Assembly (NCBI GenBank): GCA_017883285.1
Contig: JADGNV010000098.1
Location: 244-64,243, forward strand
DNA from: Candidatus Aminicenantes bacterium
Lineage (GTDB): Bacteria > Acidobacteriota > Aminicenantia > Aminicenantales > UBA4085
Direction of reading: 5' to 3'
Length of the DNA stretch: 64,000 nucleotides
In this document: one piece after another, positions 34,686 to 44,545 of the stretch
How positions within the stretch are numbered: the stretch's first letter is position 1
Layout: every line of letters starts with the position of its first letter
Position numbers and translations under genes: made by a program
Notes under the pieces: model-generated
The model's database searches: none
Seen by the model: only the letters and a program-made list of their open reading frames with translations
Told to the model about the DNA's origin: nothing

Positions 34686-36047
34686 TTATTTAGCGCCGCT
34701 GAGGACGGTCTCCATCTCCTCTTCGCTCATCCCCAGGGCCTCCGCGGCCCTCGCCCGATCGCCGTCGAAATAGGCGAGCATCTTCGCCACGTGTTCGCAC
34801 TCGATTTCGACGAGCTTGCGCGGGCGAAACCCTTCCGCCTTTTCGTCGAGCGAACGGGTCAGCATTTCCCTTATATGGGGCGGGAGCGAGTCCGCGGTCA
34901 GGACATCGCCGGGCTCTTCCGACGCCGCCCGCTCGACGATGTTTTTGAGCTCACGGACGTTGTCCGGAAAGTCGTACTGCTCGAGAAGCCCGAGGAACTC
35001 GGGCGAGAAGCCCGTGATCTTCTTGCCCAGGGCAACCGCCTCGGCCTTGAGGAAGTATTCGGCCAGGAGCGGGATGTCGCCCGTGCGCTCTTGGAGGGCG
35101 GGGATGCGGAGGGAGTTCAGCATGAGGTGATAGAGAAGGTCGCGCGAGAACATCTTCTTATAGTATTCCTGCGTCAGGTCGTGATGGGAGGCGACGATGA
35201 ACCGAACGTCCGCCTTCAGGACGGTCGTCGAGTTCTCCCGATAGAACTCTCCCGCCTGGATGAGCCGGCGGAGCCGGACCTGCACAGAGATGGAGAGGAG
35301 GTCGATCTCGTCCAGAAAAAGAGTTCCCCCGGCGGCCTTCTCCACCAGGCCCGGGGCCTCGCCGCGCGCGCCGCTCCAGTCCCGCCCTTGTCCGAAGAAT
35401 TCCGCGGGGAACCGGGCCGGCTCGCGGGCCGCCACATCCACCGATACGAACGGGCCGTTCCGCCTCGGGCTGGCGCTGTGGATGGCCCGGGCGAGCATCT
35501 CCTTGTAGGTGCCGCGCTCGCCCCAGATGAAGATGCAGTCGTTTCCGGCCGCCATCCGCTCGGCCTCGTGGAACACGCGGATCAGGGCCGGGTCCTGCGT
35601 GGGGAGATGGGCGAAGGCCTCGCCGTGGGCCAGGCCGGCCTTGCTCAGGTCCGCCGGGAGGCGGCTGATCGACCGCTTGATGGTCGTGTGCTCGACGGCG
35701 TCGTCGAGGACCTTGAGAAGCGTATCCTCGTCCACGGGCTTGGTCAGATAGTCGTAGGCCCCGAGCTTCATCGCCCGGACCGCGAGATCCACGTCGCCCA
35801 CGCCGGTGAGCGTGATGACGGCGATACCGAGCTTCCGGTCATGGACGGCTTGGAGGATGTCGAGCCCGCTGACGTACGGCATGTCCATGTCGAGCAGGAC
35901 CGCGTCGAACGAGCCTTGGACGAGAAGATCGAGCGCTTTCCGCGAGTCGTTGACCACGGTGCTGTCGTAGCGCTCGGTCTGCATCAGGAAGACTTCTAGG
36001 TGGTTCGTGACGCCGATGTCGTCGTCGACGATGAGGACTTTGTTCAT
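34686..36047 (-). CDS. NtrC-family response regulator (REC + AAA+ + Fis-type HTH) with degenerate Walker A and GAFTGA
   Basis: 453 aa from MNKVLIVDDD, with GGGAGG upstream. REC: LLDMDMP, TKP. AAA+: GERGTYKE in place of GESGTGKE, and RDWSGAR in place of GAFTGA; GGTLFLDEID is retained. The C-terminal HTH is AAEALGMS. Confidence 0.9.
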   Translation of the reverse strand: MNKVLIVDDDIGVTNHLEVFLMQTERYDSTVVNDSRKALDLLVQGSFDAVLLDMDMPYVSGLDILQAVHDRKLGIAVITLTGVGDVDLAVRAMKLGAYDYLTKPVDEDTLLKVLDDAVEHTTIKRSISRLPADLSKAGLAHGEAFAHLPTQDPALIRVFHEAERMAAGNDCIFIWGERGTYKEMLARAIHSASPRRNGPFVSVDVAAREPARFPAEFFGQGRDWSGARGEAPGLVEKAAGGTLFLDEIDLLSISVQVRLRRLIQAGEFYRENSTTVLKADVRFIVASHHDLTQEYYKKMFSRDLLYHLMLNSLRIPALQERTGDIPLLAEYFLKAEAVALGKKITGFSPEFLGLLEQYDFPDNVRELKNIVERAASEEPGDVLTADSLPPHIREMLTRSLDEKAEGFRPRKLVEIECEHVAKMLAYFDGDRARAAEALGMSEEEMETVLSGAK

Positions 36048-36082
36048 CTCTGTGCCTCCCGAGGATAGCCGGACGCCCAAAA

Positions 36083-37351
36083 TTACGCGGGCTGGCCGGA
36101 CGCCGCGGGGCCGCCCCCCGCCGGCTTCATCGGCAGCGAAATCTTGAACGTCGTGCCGACGTCGAGCTTGCTCGCCACCGCGATGCTCCCGCCGTGCTCC
36201 TCGACGATCCGGTAGGCGATGGCCAAGCCGAGGCCCGTTCCGCCCCCCGCCCGGCGGGTGGTGAAGAACGGCTCGAAGATGCGCTTGATCGTCTGCTCGC
36301 TCATCCCCTTGCCGTTGTCCTGGACCTCGATGACGACGTTCGCCCCCTCCGCCCGGGTCGACGCCCGGATGCGGCCGCGCCGCCCTTCGGGCATCGCCTG
36401 CCCCGCGTTGATGAGGAGGTTCACGATGACCTGCTCGATCTTCTGGGCGTTGCCGGTGATGATGGGCAGGTCGGCGGCCAGGTCGAGCTCGATGTCCGCG
36501 AATTTGTTCACCTCATTGTGCACCAGGCGCCGGGCCGCGTCGAGGATCGTGTTCGCGTCCACGGCGTCGATCAGGAGCCCCTCGTCGCGCCGGGCGAAGC
36601 GCTTGAGGCCTTCGACGATCTCCTTGATCCGCTCGGAGCCGTGGGCCATGTCGTTGACGAGCACCAGGATGTGCTCGCGGAAGAACTCGTACTTGAGGCG
36701 GGCGATCTTCAGGTCGGGATGCTGGGCGTAGTATTCGTCGAGGATGGGCAGGATCCCCTCGAACGCCTGCTGGATGATCTTGACGTTGCCTCGGATGAAC
36801 TGGTTCGGGTTGTTGATTTCGTGGCCGATGCCGCTCACGAGCTGGCCGAGGGAGGCGAGCTTGTCCGCCTGCTGGAGCTGCCGCTCGTAGGTCTTTTCCA
36901 GGGTGATGTCCCGGTAGAACTCGATGATCCCCTCGACCTCGTGCTCCGGGTTGAAGATCGGCAGGGCGTTCGCCTCGTAGTAGATGTCCCCGTGCTTGAC
37001 CTCGAGCGTGATCGGCGTCTTCACCTTCAGGATGCGGGACAGGCGGCAATCCTTGCAGGGGACGTCCCGGTTGAAGAAAGTGCGGTAGCATTTGTTTCCG
37101 GCGGCCACGTTTTTGCGGTTCGTCATCACTACGGTGTGCTGCCGGTCGATGAGGGCCACGTTATCGGGGATGGCCTGGAAGATCGTTTCCAGGCGGTGCT
37201 TCGACTCTTCCCATTCGCGGTTGGTGCGGTCCATGGAGGCGTTGATGGTGCTGAGCTTTTGGCGCTGCTCCTCGACTTCGCGCGTCCGGGATTCGATCTC
37301 GCGTTCGAGCTCCCGCAGCCGTTCCGCGAGGGTTTCGGGGGAGCTTGGCAT
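36083..37351 (-). CDS. Cytoplasmic sensor histidine kinase (coiled coil + Cys-rich PAS-like + HisKA + HATPase_c)
   Basis: 422 aa with GIGHEINNP (H-box), NLLINAGQA (N-box), DNGKGM and GTGLGLAI. No TM segment. The sensor part has CYRTFFNRDVPCKDC. Confidence 0.9.
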   Translation of the reverse strand: MPSSPETLAERLRELEREIESRTREVEEQRQKLSTINASMDRTNREWEESKHRLETIFQAIPDNVALIDRQHTVVMTNRKNVAAGNKCYRTFFNRDVPCKDCRLSRILKVKTPITLEVKHGDIYYEANALPIFNPEHEVEGIIEFYRDITLEKTYERQLQQADKLASLGQLVSGIGHEINNPNQFIRGNVKIIQQAFEGILPILDEYYAQHPDLKIARLKYEFFREHILVLVNDMAHGSERIKEIVEGLKRFARRDEGLLIDAVDANTILDAARRLVHNEVNKFADIELDLAADLPIITGNAQKIEQVIVNLLINAGQAMPEGRRGRIRASTRAEGANVVIEVQDNGKGMSEQTIKRIFEPFFTTRRAGGGTGLGLAIAYRIVEEHGGSIAVASKLDVGTTFKISLPMKPAGGGPAASGQPA

Positions 37352-37360
37352 CGGATCTCC

Positions 37361-40300
37361 TTAGGACCTCTGGTCCTGGACGCGGTAGTGCTCGACGCCG
37401 ACCTCGCGGACCTGCCGTTTGTACCGTTCGGCGACCGTGAGCGCGGGCGCGATCGGACTCGGCTTCGTCCGGACGTCGGCGATGTTCAACCGGGCGAAGC
37501 CGTTCCCGTCGCGCGCCTCGCCGGTGTTCCAATAGAACCGCACCCGGTCGCCGAGCCCGGCGCGCACCTGGCGGTCGATTTCCGACGAGATCTCGGCGAA
37601 CGTCGCGCCGATGCCCTCGATGCCGAACGCCTTCGCCAACCCCGCCAGGATCTCCCATGGGGGGGCGCCGAAGGGCGGCTTGACGGCCTGTGTGTAGCGC
37701 GTGAGTCGGCCTTCGAAATTGATGCGCGTTCCGTCGCTCTCCAGGAACGTGGAGCCGGGCAGGACGACGTCGGCGAACCGCGTGGTCTCGGTGGGGCACC
37801 AGTCCAGGGCGGCCAGGAATTCGGCGTTGCCGAAATACGAACCGATCTTGTCGTCCCGCATCGGGTCCTCGCCGATGATGAGCGCCGCCCGGATCCGCCC
37901 GTCCTTGAGCATCGCCCGGAGCTCGGCGCGGGATTTGGCGCCGGGCCGCCCGCCGGACGGCCGCCGTCCGGCTAGGAAACCCGGATCCGCCCCGACGACC
38001 TCCACGGCCGCCCCGTTCGCGCCGGCGAACGGCAGAATCAAATCGGCGCGGATGCTCTTGGCCCGGAGGAGGAGGACGAGATTCGCCAGCGCGACGGCGT
38101 CTCCGGGAGACTGGTCCTGCGTCCGGTCCGGACCGTGGATGAAGGCGACCTTCCCGGCGGCGGCGAGCCGGTCCGCGGCGGCGATGATCTTCTCCGCTTC
38201 GACCCCCGTCAATTCGGAGATCGCCTGCGGACTATAGTCGAAGAGATCGTTCAGGAATTCTTTGCCGCCCGGCAGCATCCGGACCGCGTCCCGGCCGAAG
38301 AAGCCGCGGTCGAGGAGGACCTGCATGACGCCGTTCCAGAGGAGCGCCGCCCGCCCGCGCATCGGGTCGAGGGAAAGCGCCGCCAGGCTGGCCAGCGGGC
38401 CGGCGGCCGAGCCGGCGGCGATGAGGATCGCGCCCTTGCGGACCGCGGCGATGATCTCGACGCCCAGGATCAGGTGGTCGTTTTGCGGATCGACGTTGTT
38501 GCAGACGATCAGGTCGGCCGATGTCACGGCCGAGCGGTCGGCCGTGGACGCGGTGAAGCCGAGCGACGCGTCGAGGGCCCCGGCTTCGGCGCCCGAGGCG
38601 AGGAGGGCGAGCGAACCGATGTTGTTGGTTCCGATCCCGTCGCGCGCGATCCGGGAGGCCAGGAACATCTCCTCGTTGGAGAGCTCCGGAGAGACGAACA
38701 CGCCGACCGCCTCCGGGCCGTGCTTTTCGGCCGCGCCCTTGAGCGCCGCGGCGGTCTTGGCCAGCGCGTCCGCGAGCGGGACGGCCTTGGGCTTGCCTCT
38801 CTCCCGGACCGTGGGTTGTTCGATCCGGCGCTGGGCGATGAATAGCTCGCTTCCGAATCGGCCGTAGCGGCACAGGTCGCTGCCCGGACGGCCAACCGAC
38901 GAGGTATAGTAGCGGTCCGCGTCGATCTTTTTGACGGCGAGCGGGCACCCGATCGAACAGAACGCGCAATGCGTTTCCACGTCCTCGGTCGGCAGGCACG
39001 CCCGGCCGGGGAACGGGAACTTCACGGTCAAGGCCCCGGTGGGACAGGCGTCCACGCAGTTGCCGCAGCTGATGCAGTTCGTTTCGACGAGCGGGTCGTT
39101 CATCGCCGGCCGCATCTCGGTCTTGAAGCCGCGGCCGACGAGCCCCAGGGCCGAGATCGGCAGCACGCGGGCGCAGGTCCGGATGCACCGGGCGCAGAGG
39201 ATGCACTTGTTCGGGTCGTAGACCACGTACGGATGGCGGTCGTCGACTTTGTGCTTGCGAATGGCGCCGGCGTAGCGGGCGAGATCGACGCCGTATTCCT
39301 CGGCGTAGCGGCGGAGATTGCAGCGGTCGTAGACCACGCAGCCGCAGGCGAGGCAGCGGGCGGACTCGTATTTCACGTCCTCGTCTTCGTAGCCCGTCGC
39401 GACCTCGGCGAAGCTTCCGCGCCGGGCTTCGACGTCGATTTCGGGAACCTCGTGCCGCGGGGATTCCTTCACGTCGCCGAGCTCGGCAGCGCCGGGCTTC
39501 GCCCAGAAGCTCTTCCGGACGACGAACGGCCGTTCCCGGACCTTCTCGCCGCTGAGCTGCTCGTGGATCGCGAGCGCGGCCCGCCGGCCGTCGCGCACCG
39601 CGTCGACCACGACCGTCGGCCCGTCGTCGGCGACGTCGCCCCCGGCATAGAGGCCGGGGACGTTGGTCTTCATCGTGGCCGGGTCGGCGACGATTGTGTT
39701 CCAGCGCGACGTCTTCGGCCCGTCGGCGCCGTCCGCGAGGCCGTCGAGCACCGGCTCCTGGCCGATGGCCGGGACCGCGAGGTCGCAGGGCAGCACGAAC
39801 TCGGACCCCTCCTGGGGGATCGGCCGGCGCCGTCCGGAGGAATCCGGCTCGCCGAGCTTCATCCGGATGCAGCGGAGCGCCTTCAGCCTGCCGTTTTCGG
39901 TGACGAGGCCGACGGGCGCCGCGAGCTCCATGATCTCGATCCCTTCCTTCAGGCCGTCCTCGATCTCCAGCTTGTCGGCCGGCATCTCGGCCTTCGTCCG
40001 CCGGTAGAGGAGGATGACCCGGTCCGCGCCGAGGCGCCACGCCGTCCGGGCCGCGTCCATCGCCGTGTTCCCCCCGCCGACCACGACCACGATCCCTTTC
40101 ACGGGATCGCGGCGTTCCGCCTTGGACATCAGAAAATCGACGCCCTTGACGATGCCTGCTGTGGTCCCCTCGCCTTCGACGCCCATGTCCTTGCTGCCCA
40201 TGGCGCCGGCGGCGATGAAGACGGCGGCGTGTTTCTCCATGAGCTCAGTCAGGGAGACGTCCGCGCCGACGCGCACCCCCGTCCTGATCTCGGCCCCGGA

Positions 40301-41062
40301 GCGGCGGATGTAATCGATCTCGCGGTCGAGCACGTCGTTCGGCAGCCGGTATTCCGGGATGCCGTAGCGGAGCATCCCGCCCGGCTTGGGCAGGGCTTCG
40401 TAGATGACGGGATCATATCCGTAGAGGCCGAGATACCAGGCGGCCGTGAGCCCGGCGGGGCCCGAGCCCACGATGCCGACGGTCAGGCCGCGGGAAGGCA
40501 ACCGCTCGGGCGCTTCGTCGTAGGCGCCGGGGCGGTCGGTGACGAACCGCTTGATGGCGTTGATCCCGACCGGCTCGTCGATGTCGGCCCTCCGGCACTC
40601 GATTTCGCACTTGCGCACGCAGATCCGGCCGCACACCGCCGGGAGCGGGTTCATCTCCCGGATGAGTTGCACCGCGCGCCCGTATTGCCCCATCGCGGCC
40701 AGGGCCACATAGCCCTGGCAGTCCACGCCGGCGGGGCAGGCCAGGGCGCACGGCGAGACGCAGTCGGCGTAATGGTTCGAGAGGAGGAGTTCGAGCGCGG
40801 TCCGCCGCGACGCGACGATCCGCTCGTTGCGGGTCGTGATCTTCATCCCCTCGGCCACGCGGGTCGCGCAGGCGGGGACGAGGTTCGGCCGCCCGGCGAC
40901 TTCCACCACGCACAGGAAGCAGGAGCCGTAAGGCTCGAGCTCCGGCGAATGGCAGAGGGTGGGGATGGAGTCGAGCGCGTTCTCGGCGACGACCTCCAGG
41001 ATCGTCTTGGCGGAGTCCGCCGCGATCTTTCGCTCGTTGATCTCGACCGTGACGGCTGCCAT
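37361..41062 (-). CDS. Fusion oxidoreductase subunit: NuoG-type 2Fe-2S + GltD/NfnB-like FAD/NAD(P)H module + 4Fe-4S clusters + molybdopterin-oxidoreductase-like domain lacking catalytic residues
   Basis: The true start is MAAVTVEINERK (1233 aa, counted), with GAGGA upstream. The track ORF (1785 aa) carries a 552-codon junk extension across the NuoF-like gene. Motifs in order: CHSPELEPYGSCFLCVV; CVSPC..CP...GRICVRKCEIEC; GIVGSGPAGL; VVGGGNTAMDAART; CILCARCIRTC; CISCGNCVDACP; HCAFCSIGCP. Confidence 0.85.
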   Translation of the reverse strand: MAAVTVEINERKIAADSAKTILEVVAENALDSIPTLCHSPELEPYGSCFLCVVEVAGRPNLVPACATRVAEGMKITTRNERIVASRRTALELLLSNHYADCVSPCALACPAGVDCQGYVALAAMGQYGRAVQLIREMNPLPAVCGRICVRKCEIECRRADIDEPVGINAIKRFVTDRPGAYDEAPERLPSRGLTVGIVGSGPAGLTAAWYLGLYGYDPVIYEALPKPGGMLRYGIPEYRLPNDVLDREIDYIRRSGAEIRTGVRVGADVSLTELMEKHAAVFIAAGAMGSKDMGVEGEGTTAGIVKGVDFLMSKAERRDPVKGIVVVVGGGNTAMDAARTAWRLGADRVILLYRRTKAEMPADKLEIEDGLKEGIEIMELAAPVGLVTENGRLKALRCIRMKLGEPDSSGRRRPIPQEGSEFVLPCDLAVPAIGQEPVLDGLADGADGPKTSRWNTIVADPATMKTNVPGLYAGGDVADDGPTVVVDAVRDGRRAALAIHEQLSGEKVRERPFVVRKSFWAKPGAAELGDVKESPRHEVPEIDVEARRGSFAEVATGYEDEDVKYESARCLACGCVVYDRCNLRRYAEEYGVDLARYAGAIRKHKVDDRHPYVVYDPNKCILCARCIRTCARVLPISALGLVGRGFKTEMRPAMNDPLVETNCISCGNCVDACPTGALTVKFPFPGRACLPTEDVETHCAFCSIGCPLAVKKIDADRYYTSSVGRPGSDLCRYGRFGSELFIAQRRIEQPTVRERGKPKAVPLADALAKTAAALKGAAEKHGPEAVGVFVSPELSNEEMFLASRIARDGIGTNNIGSLALLASGAEAGALDASLGFTASTADRSAVTSADLIVCNNVDPQNDHLILGVEIIAAVRKGAILIAAGSAAGPLASLAALSLDPMRGRAALLWNGVMQVLLDRGFFGRDAVRMLPGGKEFLNDLFDYSPQAISELTGVEAEKIIAAADRLAAAGKVAFIHGPDRTQDQSPGDAVALANLVLLLRAKSIRADLILPFAGANGAAVEVVGADPGFLAGRRPSGGRPGAKSRAELRAMLKDGRIRAALIIGEDPMRDDKIGSYFGNAEFLAALDWCPTETTRFADVVLPGSTFLESDGTRINFEGRLTRYTQAVKPPFGAPPWEILAGLAKAFGIEGIGATFAEISSEIDRQVRAGLGDRVRFYWNTGEARDGNGFARLNIADVRTKPSPIAPALTVAERYKRQVREVGVEHYRVQDQRS

Positions 41063-41070
41063 ATTCGTCC

Positions 41071-42861
41071 TCAATCCTTGTAGACCGCGCCGAACGTGCA
41101 GCTCGTGATGCACTTGCCGCACTTGATGCAGAGCGCGTTGTCGATGACGTGCAATTCTTTCAGCGTACCGCGGATCGCGTTGGAGGCGCACGCCTTGGCG
41201 CAGAGCGTGCAGCCTGTGCACTTGGCGGGGTCGATGTGGTAATCGACGAGCATCCCGCAGCTCTTGGCCGGGCATTTCTTGTCGTTGATGTGGGCCAGGC
41301 ATTCGTCCATGAAATAGCGGAGGGTGGTGAGGACGGGGTTCGGCGCGGTCTGGCCCAGGCCGCAGAGGCTCGCCTCCTTGATCTGGAGAGAGAGGCGCCG
41401 GAGTTTGTCGACGTCGTCGAGCGCGCCTTCGCCGCGCGTGATGCGCTCCAGGATCTCCAGCATGCGCAGGGTGCCGATCCGGCAGAACGTGCATTTTCCG
41501 CAGGACTCGTCCTGGGTGAAGTGGAGAAAAAAGCGGGCGATGTCCACCATGCAGGTGGACTCGTCCATCACGATCATCCCGCCGGAACCCATGATCGCGC
41601 CGGTCTTCGGAATGTTTTCGAAGTCCACCGGCGTCTCGCCGAGGGTGTGCGGGATGCAGCCGCCCGACGGGCCGCCCATCTGCACCGCCTTGAATTTTCC
41701 GCCGCCCTTGATGCCGCCGCCGATGCCGAACACGAGCTGGTTGATCGTCGTCCCCATCGGCACTTCGGCCAGGCCGCCCCGCGCGACCGCGCCCGCCAGG
41801 GCGAAGACCTTGGTGCCCCGGCTCTTCTCGGTGCCGATCGCGGCGTAAGCCGCCGCCCCTTGGACGAGGATCCAGGGGATGTTGGCGTAGGTCTCGACGT
41901 TGTTGTTGTTGGTCGGTTTTTGCCACAACCCTTTTTCGGCCGGGAACGGCGGGCGGATGCGGGGCATCCCGCGCTCGCCCTCGATGGACGCGAACAGGGC
42001 CGTCTCCTCGCCGCAGACGAACGCGCCCGCGCCCTGCTTGATCTTGATGTCGAAATCGTGGCCGGAGCCCAGGATGTCCTTGCCCAGATAGCCTTGCCGC
42101 CGCGCCTGCTCGATGGCTCCCGCCAGGCGCTGTATGGCCAGGGGATACTCGGCCCGGCAATAGATATAGCCGAAGCTCGAGCCGATGGCCCGTCCGCAGA
42201 TGATCATCCCCTCGAGGACGGCGTGGGGGTCGCTTTCGAGGACGCTCCGGTCCATGAACGCGCCGGGATCGCCCTCGTCGGCGTTGCAGACGACGAATTT
42301 CGTATCGCTCCGGGTCGCGGCCGCGAACGACCACTTGAGTCCCGTGGGGAACCCCGCGCCGCCCCTTCCGCGCAGCCCGGACTGGTTGACCTCTTCGATG
42401 ATGGCCGCCGGCGCCATTTCGAAGAGCGCTTTGCGGAGGGCCCGGTAGCCCCCCGCGGCCTCGTAGTCCTCGATCGATTCCGGATTGATGAGGCCGCAAT
42501 GGCGGAGGACGATGCGCTTCTGGAGCGCGAGGAATTCCTTTTCGGCGCCGCCGATGAGGCCGGTGGAGGCGTCTTCGCTGTACACAATGCCGTCCGCCAA
42601 AGGCCTGCCGCCGGCGAGGTGGTTTTCGACGATCTCCCGGGCGCGGCCGGGCTTCACGTCGCCATAGATGGTCCGGCGGCCGTTCTCGCGCACTTCGACC
42701 AGCGGTTCCCGGTAGCACATCCCGATGCAGCCGGTGATCGAGAGCCGGGCGTCGCCGAGCCCGCGCGATTTGTCCTCGAGCAGCCCCCGGAGGGTTTCAT
42801 AGGTTTCCCGGGCGCCCGCCGAGAGGCCGCAGGTTCCCATGCCGACAATGACCTGGCGCAT
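41071..42861 (-). CDS. NuoF/HydB-like NADH-binding FMN Fe-S subunit (N-terminal thioredoxin-like 2Fe-2S domain, C-terminal 2x[4Fe-4S])
   Basis: 596 aa with GRGGAGFPTGLKW, ESCGKCTFCRIG, and CTGCTLCAKAC...CIKCGKCITSC. Confidence 0.92.
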   Translation of the reverse strand: MRQVIVGMGTCGLSAGARETYETLRGLLEDKSRGLGDARLSITGCIGMCYREPLVEVRENGRRTIYGDVKPGRAREIVENHLAGGRPLADGIVYSEDASTGLIGGAEKEFLALQKRIVLRHCGLINPESIEDYEAAGGYRALRKALFEMAPAAIIEEVNQSGLRGRGGAGFPTGLKWSFAAATRSDTKFVVCNADEGDPGAFMDRSVLESDPHAVLEGMIICGRAIGSSFGYIYCRAEYPLAIQRLAGAIEQARRQGYLGKDILGSGHDFDIKIKQGAGAFVCGEETALFASIEGERGMPRIRPPFPAEKGLWQKPTNNNNVETYANIPWILVQGAAAYAAIGTEKSRGTKVFALAGAVARGGLAEVPMGTTINQLVFGIGGGIKGGGKFKAVQMGGPSGGCIPHTLGETPVDFENIPKTGAIMGSGGMIVMDESTCMVDIARFFLHFTQDESCGKCTFCRIGTLRMLEILERITRGEGALDDVDKLRRLSLQIKEASLCGLGQTAPNPVLTTLRYFMDECLAHINDKKCPAKSCGMLVDYHIDPAKCTGCTLCAKACASNAIRGTLKELHVIDNALCIKCGKCITSCTFGAVYKD

Positions 42862-42869
42862 TCCGGCCT

Positions 42870-43391
42870 CTAGCTCCCGGCTCCCGTCGCGCCGGCTTGC
42901 GCGTCCCGCGTTTTCGGCTTTTCCCGGCGGCGGATCCCGCGCAGGATTTTGCGCACCGCCGCGGGCGTGAGCCGGCCGTGCGTCTCGTCGTCGATCATCA
43001 TCACCGGGGCGAGCGAGCAGCAGCCGAGACAGGCGACCGTGAACAGCGTGAAGAGGCCGTCCTCGGTCGTCCCCCCAACTTCGATCCCGAGCTCATCCTG
43101 GACCGTATCGACGATGAGCTTCGCGCCCGAGACGTGACAGGCCGTCCCCACGCAAGTCTTGATCATGTGCTCGCCCATCGGCTGGAGCCGGAACTGGTTG
43201 TAGAACGTGATGACCCCGTAGACGGTGGATTCGGGAATGTTCGTCGCCGAGGAGATGTACTTGATCGCCCGGCGGGGAATGTAGCCGAAGTGGTCCTGGG
43301 CGGATTGGAGCAGGGGAATGAGCTCGCCCGGGGCGCCGTCGTAGCGCCACAGGCGGTATGTGAAATCTGGTTCCTGGTTCTTGTCGGCCAT
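42870..43391 (-). CDS. NuoE/HydC-like 2Fe-2S subunit
   Basis: 173 aa with CVGTACHVSGA...CLGCCSLAPV. Confidence 0.92.
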   Translation of the reverse strand: MADKNQEPDFTYRLWRYDGAPGELIPLLQSAQDHFGYIPRRAIKYISSATNIPESTVYGVITFYNQFRLQPMGEHMIKTCVGTACHVSGAKLIVDTVQDELGIEVGGTTEDGLFTLFTVACLGCCSLAPVMMIDDETHGRLTPAAVRKILRGIRRREKPKTRDAQAGATGAGS

Positions 43392-43471
43392 CGCCCTCGT
43401 ATCCTTATCGGTGCGGACCTCTCGAGCCCTCCGCTCCGGCCGCCTCGACGTTTTCCGCGCGGGGCGCAGCC

Positions 43472-44455
43472 TCAGGCGTCGATCATCTTGATGATTTTCG
43501 CTTCGCGGACGCGCAGGACCCCGTCGATTTTGCCGAGCTTCTCGATGACTTTCGGCGTCTTGCCGGTCGCCTGACCGCCGGTGACCATGCCCACGAGCTT
43601 GGTGCCGTTGTCGATCACGTCCAGGAAGATCAGCTCGTCGACGAAGAACACGGTGGTGAAGATCTGCTGGAGGGCGTGCTTGTCGATGTCGACGATGATG
43701 TAGCTCGTCGTGCCCTTGCGGCGATTGTCCCGCGTATGCCGGACGGATTTTTTGTAAATCTCGATGAATTCCTTGACGTCCCGGTCGAGCTTCGGCCGCT
43801 CGACCGGCGACATCGAGGCGACCTCGACGCCGTCGACGGCCTTGATGCGGTCGAGCAGGCCCTTGATCTTCTCCTCGGACGAGGCCTGGGCGAGGACGAT
43901 GATGTCCACGTCGCCGCGCACGGCGTCGCAGGAGGCCACGCCTTCCATGTCGTTGATATCGCTGAAGATCTCCATGCTGCGGGCGGGGTCGGTGATGTGG
44001 ATGGTCATGTAAGCGCTGACGGATTCCTTGAGGAACCCGGGCTCCTTCGCGGAGGGCTCGACCGCGGCGCGCTGGGCCCGTCCCGGCGTGAGCGCTTCGA
44101 GCGCTTCGACAAGCTGGGGGATCTCGAACGGCTTGTCCAGATAGCCGGTGTTCGGCTCCGACAGGGCCATGGCCTTGAGGGATTCGTCGCCGAACCCGGT
44201 GATCACGAGCACGGGCAAGGCCGGGAACTCGTTCTTGATCACCGTCAGGATCTTCAGCCCGTCGATGTCCGGCATGAAGATGTCGGTGATGAGGTAGTCG
44301 TAACTCTCGCCCTTGTCGAGGGCGGCGCTCAGCTCGTGGATCGCCGAGATCCCGTCGGGGCAGGCCGTGCAGGTGTAGCCCTCCTGGGTAAGCCCGAACA
44401 TGAGGTTCCTACGGATGGCCGGCTCGTCGTCGATGATCAGCACGCGTTTTTCCAT
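43472..44455 (-). CDS. Response-regulator receiver fused to two Lrp/AsnC-type RAM-like domains, no DNA-binding domain
   Basis: The start is at MEKRVLIIDDE with AGGAG upstream. REC: LITDIFMPDIDG, VITGF, DKPF. Two ~75-aa beta-alpha-beta-beta-alpha-beta-like segments follow (AYMTIHI...VEVASMSPV and SYIIVDI...VLRVREAKII). Confidence 0.75.
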   Translation of the reverse strand: MEKRVLIIDDEPAIRRNLMFGLTQEGYTCTACPDGISAIHELSAALDKGESYDYLITDIFMPDIDGLKILTVIKNEFPALPVLVITGFGDESLKAMALSEPNTGYLDKPFEIPQLVEALEALTPGRAQRAAVEPSAKEPGFLKESVSAYMTIHITDPARSMEIFSDINDMEGVASCDAVRGDVDIIVLAQASSEEKIKGLLDRIKAVDGVEVASMSPVERPKLDRDVKEFIEIYKKSVRHTRDNRRKGTTSYIIVDIDKHALQQIFTTVFFVDELIFLDVIDNGTKLVGMVTGGQATGKTPKVIEKLGKIDGVLRVREAKIIKMIDA

Positions 44456-44474
44456 GGAGTCTCCTGATCGCGTA

Positions 44475-44516
44475 TTCCCGGACGAATCCCCCGAAAATGA
44501 GGGGGACGAATGGGAA
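44475..44516 (-). promoter_or_regulatory. 5'-UTR stem-loop of the REC-RAM/NuoEF operon
   Basis: On the minus strand it reads TTCCC-attcgt-CCCCC-tcattttc-GGGGG-attcgtcc-GGGAA. It lies between the predicted -10 box and the RBS. Confidence 0.4.
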
Positions 44517-44545
44517 ATTATACGCCGCGCCCGGCGGGTGGTCAA
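44517..44545 (-). promoter_or_regulatory. Consensus sigma70 promoter of the REC-RAM/NuoEF operon
   Basis: On the minus strand it reads TTGACC (44545-44540), 17-nt spacer, TATAAT (44522-44517). Confidence 0.55.

Follow-up and report, generated by a model that had tools for sequence, protein, structure and literature searches.

Six-gene unit of a Candidatus Aminicenantes bacterium pairs a predicted Nfn-Bfu (NfnABC/StnABC) complex with co-inherited signaling genes

In this study, we analyzed a 64,000-nt stretch of DNA (the window, on which all coordinates are counted) from a Candidatus Aminicenantes bacterium, assembly GCA_017883285.1, contig JADGNV010000098.1, and within it a unit of six genes that all lie on the minus strand. 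Open reading frames (ORFs) and their translations place, in order of transcription, a gene for a receiver domain joined to two RAM domains (receiver-RAM; 43475-44455, 327 aa), a NuoE-like subunit (NfnC/StnA, BfuC; 42873-43391, 173 aa), a NuoF-like subunit (41074-42861, 596 aa), a large subunit (NfnA/StnC, BfuA; 37364-41062, 1233 aa, with its ATG at 41062 and a GAGGA ribosome-binding site), a soluble histidine kinase also recognized by Pfam (36086-37351, 422 aa) and an NtrC-like regulator (34689-36047, 453 aa from the ATG, with an alternative TTG start at 36080). Taken as a whole, the locus is best explained if the three enzyme genes encode a cytoplasmic Nfn-Bfu complex flanked by a co-inherited control module, a reading that we consider very probable.

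The unit begins at a sigma-70-type promoter-like site, TTGACC-17-TATAAT (44545..44517, minus strand), that matches 11 of 12 consensus positions, and four sites of this type were seen in the region against 1.0 expected. From there it runs down to 34686 with intergenic gaps of 80, 8, 8, 9 and 35 nt. An earlier note, made from the letters of the window, had listed the same six minus-strand genes and a consensus promoter at 44517-44545, both of which we confirm; the span that it gave, 37361-44545, is too short, since 37361 belongs to the stop codon of the large subunit and the kinase and NtrC-like genes reach on to 34686. No membrane-like or hydrophobic segment was found in any of the six proteins, and no sigma-54-type site (TGGCAC-N5-TTGC-like) in the operon's intergenic regions. 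The leader of about 55 nt (44456-44516, minus strand) carries a short G/C hairpin, CCCCC...GGGGG, just 5' of an AGGAGA ribosome-binding site. The flanks are unrelated to the unit, with a divergent beta-lactamase-family gene at one side and a class-V aminotransferase gene at the other.

The assignment of the enzyme is carried by comparison with solved structures. When searched with phmmer against all PDB chains, all three subunits find their top matches in the Nfn-Bfu cryo-electron microscopy structures 9BOV, 8OH5 and 9N5U: the large subunit in 9BOV_A (E 4.6e-226), 8OH5_C (E 7.4e-204) and 9N5U (E 1e-164), the NuoF-like subunit in 8OH5_B (804 bits, E 6.3e-241), 9N5U_B (802 bits, E 4e-240) and 9BOV_B (801 bits, E 6.4e-240), and the NuoE-like subunit in 9N5U_C (E 2.4e-50), 9BOV_C (E 3.4e-47) and 8OH5_A (E 5.5e-47). 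For the NuoF-like subunit, the HydB chains of bifurcating hydrogenases score 604-711 bits and Thermus Nqo1 379 bits, a ranking by PDB bit scores that stands in for a tree of NuoF, HydB, HytB and StnB; three HydB-like paralogues in its own genome reach 585-658 bits, with 52-53% identity, by a different tool that makes this a rough comparison. The large subunit is collinear with 9BOV_A over residues 3-885. The earlier description of the locus as Stn-like, with NuoE- and NuoF-like subunits beside a large subunit that bears an NfnB/GltD module, is thus borne out, and on sequence grounds we take the enzyme to be an ordinary member of the known and structurally solved NfnABC/StnABC family, which balances NADH, NADPH and ferredoxin in anaerobes. 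Enzymes of this type have been classed as Type 1 Nfn-Bfu (Schut 2022, PMC9304861), and activity has been published only for homologues from S. ovata (PMC7483475), T. sibiricus (PMC9304861) and C. saccharolyticus (PMC11829005).

The domain order of the large subunit fits this assignment. Pfam finds Fer2_4 at residues 3-79, Fer4_20 at 101-177, Pyr_redox_2 at 195-492, Fer4_Nqo3 at 611-679 and Molybdopterin at 746-1144, and NCBIfam PRK12814 covers residues 1-631. The chain starts with a [2Fe-2S] N-domain, followed by an insert of the GltD/NfnL type (two [4Fe-4S] clusters, flavin adenine dinucleotide (FAD) and NADPH) and a CxxCxC...C cluster; the remainder comprises a ferredoxin domain with two [4Fe-4S] clusters, a MopB-type [4Fe-4S] cluster and a molybdopterin-like domain. 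The parsing agrees with the earlier placement of a GltD/NfnB-type module between the NuoG-type [2Fe-2S] domain and the 4Fe-4S/molybdopterin-like part. That the 1233-aa fusion is real, and no product of a missed stop or a frameshift, is evident from its relatives: a database search returned at least 3970, the best 120 of which are all 1219-1253 aa long and 59-97% identical, and 80 genomic loci in species-representative genomes encode the subunit at 57-80% identity.

We next consider the cofactor ligands, whose conservation was read from alignments of 67-78 orthologues taken from related loci. In the large subunit, 27 cluster-region cysteines and Lys171 are invariant in 78 of 78 sequences. They comprise C37, C48, C51 and C65 in the N-domain; C101, C105, C109, C144, C148, C152 and C156 in the GltD-type region; C570, C573, C575 and C581 in the next set; C620, C623, C626, C630, C663, C666, C669 and C673 in the ferredoxin-type set; and C699, C702, C706 and C731 in the last. 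They are predicted to suffice for one [2Fe-2S] cluster together with six [4Fe-4S] clusters, the same set as described for the NfnA of Caldicellulosiruptor saccharolyticus (Csac; PMC11829005). The lysine-ligated [4Fe-4S] cluster labeled A7 has a direct counterpart, in that C109, C148, C152 and K171, invariant in 78 of 78, align with Csac C108, C147, C151 and K170. The FAD motif GSGPAGL, the NADPH motif GGGNTA (GxGxxA) and YRRT, the NADPH-side arginine pair, are likewise conserved.

The earlier note had regarded the formate dehydrogenase/NuoG-like character of the large subunit as an uncharacterized variation on a hydrogenase-like StnC. The literature refutes this: the architecture is the canonical one, because published StnC itself has its GltD part within a NuoG-like protein. 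Kremp 2020 describes StnC as a GltD-like domain integrated in a NuoG-like protein (PMC7483475), and Kumar 2023 divides its 1172 aa into a [2Fe-2S] part (1-101), a GltD part (102-565) and a catalytically inactive FdhF-like part (683-1172) (PMC10482914). Similarly, Li 2025 gives Csac NfnA (1178 aa) an N-terminal domain, an NfnL-like domain and an Fdh/NuoG-like domain (PMC11829005). We regard this as a useful correction.

The name formate dehydrogenase nevertheless has to be dealt with, since relatives of the large subunit are automatically called 'formate dehydrogenase major subunit' in public sources, and the TIGR01591 Fdh-alpha model matches at 197 bits, below its cut-off of 666. On this alternative, the large subunit would be a working NAD(P)+-linked formate dehydrogenase, or another molybdo- or tungsto-pterin enzyme, seated on a NuoEF module. 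The window protein and two relatives, each represented by its C-terminal 546 residues, were aligned with E. coli FdhF from the annotated K-12 record. The [4Fe-4S] ligands C8, C11, C15 and C42 of FdhF are kept, but Sec140 is replaced by Ala and His141 by Ser, Arg333 is without a counterpart, and the pterin-binding domain IV, which makes up the final ~130 residues of FdhF, is absent; consistent with this, Pfam finds no match to Molydop_binding (PF01568) in the large subunit. StnC was annotated as a formate dehydrogenase as well and was therefore tested for formate oxidation, which the S. ovata enzyme did not show (Kremp 2020, PMC7483475), and in the StnC structure the FdhF-like domain holds no pterin (PMC10482914). 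The loss of these residues and of the pterin-binding domain indicates that the molybdopterin-like domain is catalytically dead; we reject a formate dehydrogenase identity, and a pterin enzyme of any kind is here exceedingly improbable. A glutamate synthase identity was rejected too, as the cassette holds no GltB-like partner.

The two smaller subunits carry the expected features of an Nfn-Bfu core. In the NuoF-like subunit, Pfam identifies Complex1_51K, NADH_4Fe-4S and two Fer4 domains, and residues 2-593 align to 8OH5_B, 9N5U_B and 9BOV_B. Invariant in 71-72 of 72 sequences are the four cysteines of cluster B1 beside the flavin mononucleotide (FMN; C454, C457, C460 and C500), three residues of the B2 metal site, a proposed Cys3His zinc site (H524, C530 and C535, with C437 as the candidate fourth ligand), and the eight C-terminal cysteines of B3 and B4 (C548-C588). 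The N-terminal thioredoxin-like domain has three conserved cysteines (C11, C45 and C49), the same as StnB and NfnB, where this three-cysteine site holds [2Fe-2S] in some structures and zinc in others (PMC11829005). Of the extra domains ascribed to this subunit in the earlier note, the C-terminal pair of [4Fe-4S] clusters is therefore upheld, whereas the N-terminal '2Fe-2S' is not established, three cysteines being compatible with [2Fe-2S] or zinc. The NuoE-like subunit matches 2Fe-2S_thioredx (E 3.7e-50), and all 67 sequences aligned keep its C1 [2Fe-2S] ligands C80, C85, C121 and C125.

Judging from the solved homologues, we propose that NADP(H) would react at the FAD of the GltD/NfnL-like insert. 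Single electrons would then reach the NuoF-like/NuoE-like core by way of the lysine-ligated [4Fe-4S] cluster and the chain of NuoG-like clusters. There, the FMN with its adjacent [4Fe-4S] and [2Fe-2S] clusters would divide electron pairs over NAD(H) and ferredoxin or recombine them, and the molybdopterin-like domain would serve as a scaffold without cofactor. In an anaerobe that lives by fermentation, the complex would thereby connect the pools of ferredoxin, NADH and NADPH, a role that we propose because the organism has a pyruvate:ferredoxin oxidoreductase (C155:665-4162, 1766 bits) and other HydB-type loci. It probably makes NADPH at the expense of the NADH and reduced ferredoxin that fermentation yields. 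The genome (3.09 Mb in 227 contigs) also encodes one [FeFe]-hydrogenase catalytic domain, and three further loci combine a HydB-type NuoF-like gene with a GltD-like module; this gene content is in keeping with an anaerobe that ferments and has several complexes linked to NAD(P)H and ferredoxin. At one of the three loci, C196:37550-40822, a 1090-aa ORF joins a NuoF-like part (Complex1_51K, NADH_4Fe-4S) directly to a GltD-like part (Fer4_20, Pyr_redox_2), which is another way of joining the same two modules. At the other two, C227:17742-26065 and C224:33563-39812, a HydB-type NuoF-like gene is paired with a GltD-like gene. An [FeFe]-hydrogenase H-cluster domain is encoded at C227 in addition and suggests that the complex there is of hydrogenase type and linked to NADP.

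Some observations weigh against a bifurcating Nfn-Bfu complex. Residues 885-1046 of the large subunit were not aligned to Csac NfnA by phmmer. Cys144 (40631-40633), invariant in this clade, is Ile in Csac NfnA, and residue 115 (40718-40720), a Cys in Csac NfnA, is variable here (6 of 78 sequences); a ligand of the second [4Fe-4S] cluster of the GltD domain may thus have shifted relative to Csac (C144/C115). In addition, the first publication on T. litoralis Nso, which shares 41% identity with StnC, described an NADPH-dependent sulfur oxidoreductase, as cited in PMC7483475. It could accordingly be argued that the complex is a non-bifurcating NAD(P)H oxidoreductase on the same scaffold, for example with polysulfide or sulfur as acceptor, or an NADH:NADP+ transhydrogenase without ferredoxin coupling, and besides the one Fe-S ligand position unlike Csac, such a view can appeal to the fact that tight coupling is beyond proof from sequence alone. 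Yet the bifurcating core is invariant throughout, namely the FMN site, the adjacent [4Fe-4S], the NuoE-like [2Fe-2S] and the C-terminal 2x[4Fe-4S] of the NuoF-like subunit. In the archaeal structure, ferredoxin docks between the last of these domains and the C-terminal domain of NfnC (PMC12018979), and the Nso homologue of T. sibiricus has been proven a genuine Nfn-Bfu (PMC9304861). We therefore consider a non-bifurcating enzyme unlikely; given the history of T. litoralis Nso, a side activity of the complex is possible.

As an enzyme, the complex adds little beyond extending a characterized transhydrogenase family to uncultured, non-Firmicutes lineages. The conserved signaling cassette is the sole element that we did not find described, and is the part worth following. 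Its first gene encodes a protein with a Pfam Response_reg domain (residues 5-119, E 5e-23) that has all phosphorylation residues, D9, D10, D58, T86 and K108, each of them unchanged across 20 aligned relatives. The first RAM copy matches Pfam AsnC_trans_reg (PF01037) at residues 163-215 with 25.6 bits against a cut-off of 25; the second has no Pfam match and shows weak similarity to the first (hhalign E 9e-4). An AlphaFold2 model of residues 144-327, built from a 28-sequence alignment, has a predicted local distance difference test score (pLDDT) of 84 and a predicted template-modeling score of 0.79 and contains two beta-alpha-beta-beta-alpha-beta units. With VIA-align, the modeled pair matches the tandem Lrp/AsnC-like siroheme decarboxylase NirDL (4CZC_A) over 153 residues and both units (Z 13.7), together with Lrp/AsnC RAM domains and RAM proteins that stand alone, about fifteen in all, at Z 10-12 and a root-mean-square deviation of 1.5-2.4; among these, 1RI7, 2ZBC and 2DJW have Z about 12 and E. 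coli AsnC Z 11.4. The model thus indicates that the C-terminal 184 aa are two RAM units of the Lrp/AsnC ligand-binding type. For the full-length protein, the model has a pLDDT of 64.5 and its Foldseek matches are to receiver domains only; the receiver-RAM protein contains no DNA-binding domain. For the RAM pair, Foldseek returned chlorite dismutase and coproheme decarboxylase matches (E about 2e-4), which we read as a shared dimeric alpha+beta-barrel fold and not as a sign that heme is bound.

The receiver-RAM gene is a faithful companion of the enzyme genes. We assessed synteny by tblastn of the six window proteins against 80 related loci, restricting counts to loci with enough flank. In 67 of 68 loci the gene directly precedes those for the enzyme, and the 68th has a 34%-identical one at the same place. 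A kinase gene is found downstream in 46 of 54 loci, in 35 of them immediately downstream on the same strand, and the NtrC-like gene is present in 43 of 54. These loci come from metagenome-assembled Aminicenantes, Elusimicrobia, Planctomycetota, Eisenbacteria, Krumholzibacteriota, Fermentibacteria, Verrucomicrobiota and Spirochaetales. Measured against the window proteins, the median identity is 73% for the NuoE-like and 72% for the NuoF-like subunit, 64% for the receiver-RAM protein and the kinase, 60% for the large subunit and 53% for the NtrC-like protein. The tandem-RAM part occurs once in the genome of the window, and a distant-family profile finds exactly one full-length receiver-RAM protein in each of five other genomes, always before the enzyme genes. 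In a whole-library search, the full-length family reaches down to ~23-35% identity. Members of a distant branch (29-35% identity; metagenome loci L101, L102, L104 and L105) are again followed by the NuoE-like, NuoF-like and large subunit genes, the large subunits being 44-46% identical to that of the window, and at L104 the kinase and NtrC-like genes follow as well. Position before the enzyme genes is kept from 83% down to 29% identity. One cluster member of the distant branch bears the name Deltaproteobacteria bacterium RBG_13_61_14. The three proteins that the earlier note had called dedicated regulators thus stand as conserved neighbors, across 80 loci and many phyla; control by them of the operon or the enzyme is a step that we infer.

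The kinase consists of a coiled coil, a cysteine-bearing PAS domain, HisKA and HATPase (Pfam). Three PAS cysteines, C88, C99 and C102 (C-x10-C-x2-C; residues 87-101 region, 37049-37093), are invariant in 51 of 51 sequences; we saw in this domain no further invariant Cys or His to serve as a fourth ligand. From this pattern, the kinase is probably a metal or Fe-S redox sensor. Its earlier description as a soluble histidine kinase is right as to solubility but needs correction, in that the window protein is an N-terminally deleted form, of 422 aa, of a kinase that has 666-670 aa in its orthologues. The deletion is in frame, with its junction near 37320-37351: the first ~7 orthologue codons are kept, and the ~246 codons that then go missing encode an N-terminal PAS domain and an unassigned region of ~130 aa. 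The window kinase is 87% identical to residues 256-656 of the orthologue at locus L001. Among 50 loci with a same-strand kinase, the spacing is that of the long form, ~650-930 nt or larger, with the single exception of L012, which has an independent, different and larger truncation.

The NtrC-like protein has the REC, AAA+ and HTH_8 domains of its family (Pfam). Across 44 sequences, the GAFTGA position reads R-D-W-S-G-x-R, so that there is no GAFTGA loop, and Walker B is degenerate, mostly F-L-N-N-I-D/E. The Walker A glycine (about 35500-35523) is retained in 39 of 44 sequences and is Tyr in the window and two others. We rejected the protein as a typical sigma-54 enhancer-binding protein on the state of its GAFTGA and Walker A and B motifs and the lack of a -24/-12 promoter site.

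How might these proteins act together? We propose that the kinase would sense redox state through its metal or Fe-S site and phosphorylate both receivers, those of the receiver-RAM and NtrC-like proteins; transcription from the sigma-70-type promoter would be under the control of the NtrC-like protein, and the receiver-RAM protein would not act on DNA but by contacting other proteins or binding a ligand. Tentatively, and as a possibility that we ourselves find doubtful, the receiver-RAM protein could be a dedicated partner, controlled by phosphorylation and by a metabolite, that binds the Nfn-Bfu complex and gates the direction or rate of NADPH/NADH/ferredoxin exchange, with the Cys-PAS kinase as redox sensor and the NtrC-like protein as transcriptional arm. 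If true, electron-bifurcating enzymes would have their first described system of post-translational control, and response regulators a new type of output. On the other side of the balance, the regulatory roles are inferred from gene neighborhood, and the signaling module may be partly decayed, disabled or rewired in the lineage of the window, because the kinase there is missing the sensor part at its N terminus and the NtrC-like protein has Tyr for the Walker A glycine.

The signaling genes could instead be ordinary neighbors that control something else, or transcription only, with the receiver-RAM protein as a phosphate sink or connector that has no direct action on the enzyme; this is a serious possibility, if short of probable. 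It would account for the eight of 54 loci with enough downstream flank in which no kinase was found, and for others where the kinase lies 2-7 kb away or is inverted. Moreover, no receiver-RAM domain fused to an enzyme subunit turned up among proteins of 574-2000 aa, which is weak evidence; fusions of 350-570 aa were not specifically sought. Against this, the receiver-RAM gene opens the operon in 67 of 68 loci, occurs only once in each of six genomes, keeps its position at only 29-35% identity and, with a median of 64% against 60%, is as conserved as the catalytic large subunit. We found no publication describing a receiver-RAM/kinase/NtrC-like cassette with an Nfn-Bfu enzyme, and the words 'kinase' and 'response regulator' are absent from the Bfu survey paper. 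We also found no literature on cellular control of a bifurcating transhydrogenase. With its conserved place before the enzyme genes, the receiver-RAM protein is a concrete candidate controller.

Comparison with known systems places both halves of the locus. The C-terminal 184 aa of the receiver-RAM protein share the RAM fold with Lrp/AsnC, stand-alone RAM proteins and NirDL; in contrast to Lrp/AsnC, the protein is without a helix-turn-helix and its RAM pair is fused to a receiver domain. NtrC-family regulators that lack GAFTGA and act at sigma-70 promoters include Rhodobacter NtrC and HupR. The NtrC-like protein resembles these in having REC, AAA+ and HTH_8 without the sigma-54 contact loop, in an operon with a sigma-70-type promoter and no sigma-54-type site, and differs in that its family also has a degenerate Walker B. 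By this analogy, action at a sigma-70-type promoter is the likeliest role of the NtrC-like protein.

For the enzyme, NfnAB/NfnSL and GltD are homologous to the insert at residues 101-507 (E 6e-88 for 4YLF_B, 3.5e-82 for 5JCA_L). In NfnSL (5JCA, 4YLF), the FAD itself bifurcates and the partner is NfnS, whereas the window's insert lies within a NuoG-like chain and, by homology with StnC, would only feed electrons to the NuoEF-like core (PMC10482914). The Nfn-Bfu of Thermococcus sibiricus (9N5U/9N5V; PMC9304861, PMC12018979) has the same flavobicluster core, and its B and C subunits score like the bacterial ones; its NfnA, of 963 aa, is without the A4 cluster cysteines (PMC9304861), whereas none of the cluster motifs of the long bacterial form is missing from the window protein. 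NfnABC of Caldicellulosiruptor saccharolyticus (9BOV/9BP5; PMC11829005) shares the subunit gene order C-B-A, the domain order of NfnA, the lysine-ligated A7 and the cysteine pattern of NfnB including the three-cysteine N-terminal site. It differs in that the window's large subunit is 55 aa longer and in that no regulator genes are reported in those sections of the paper that were searched. StnABC of Sporomusa ovata (8OH5/8OH9) likewise has the same architecture, with the motifs HxxxCxxxCxxxCP, CxxCxC...C and GxGxxA. There, stnABC lies between metVF and pabAB, beside Wood-Ljungdahl genes and without receiver-RAM, kinase or NtrC-like neighbors (PMC7483475); in the window, by contrast, the enzyme belongs to a non-Firmicutes lineage and is set within a six-gene cassette.

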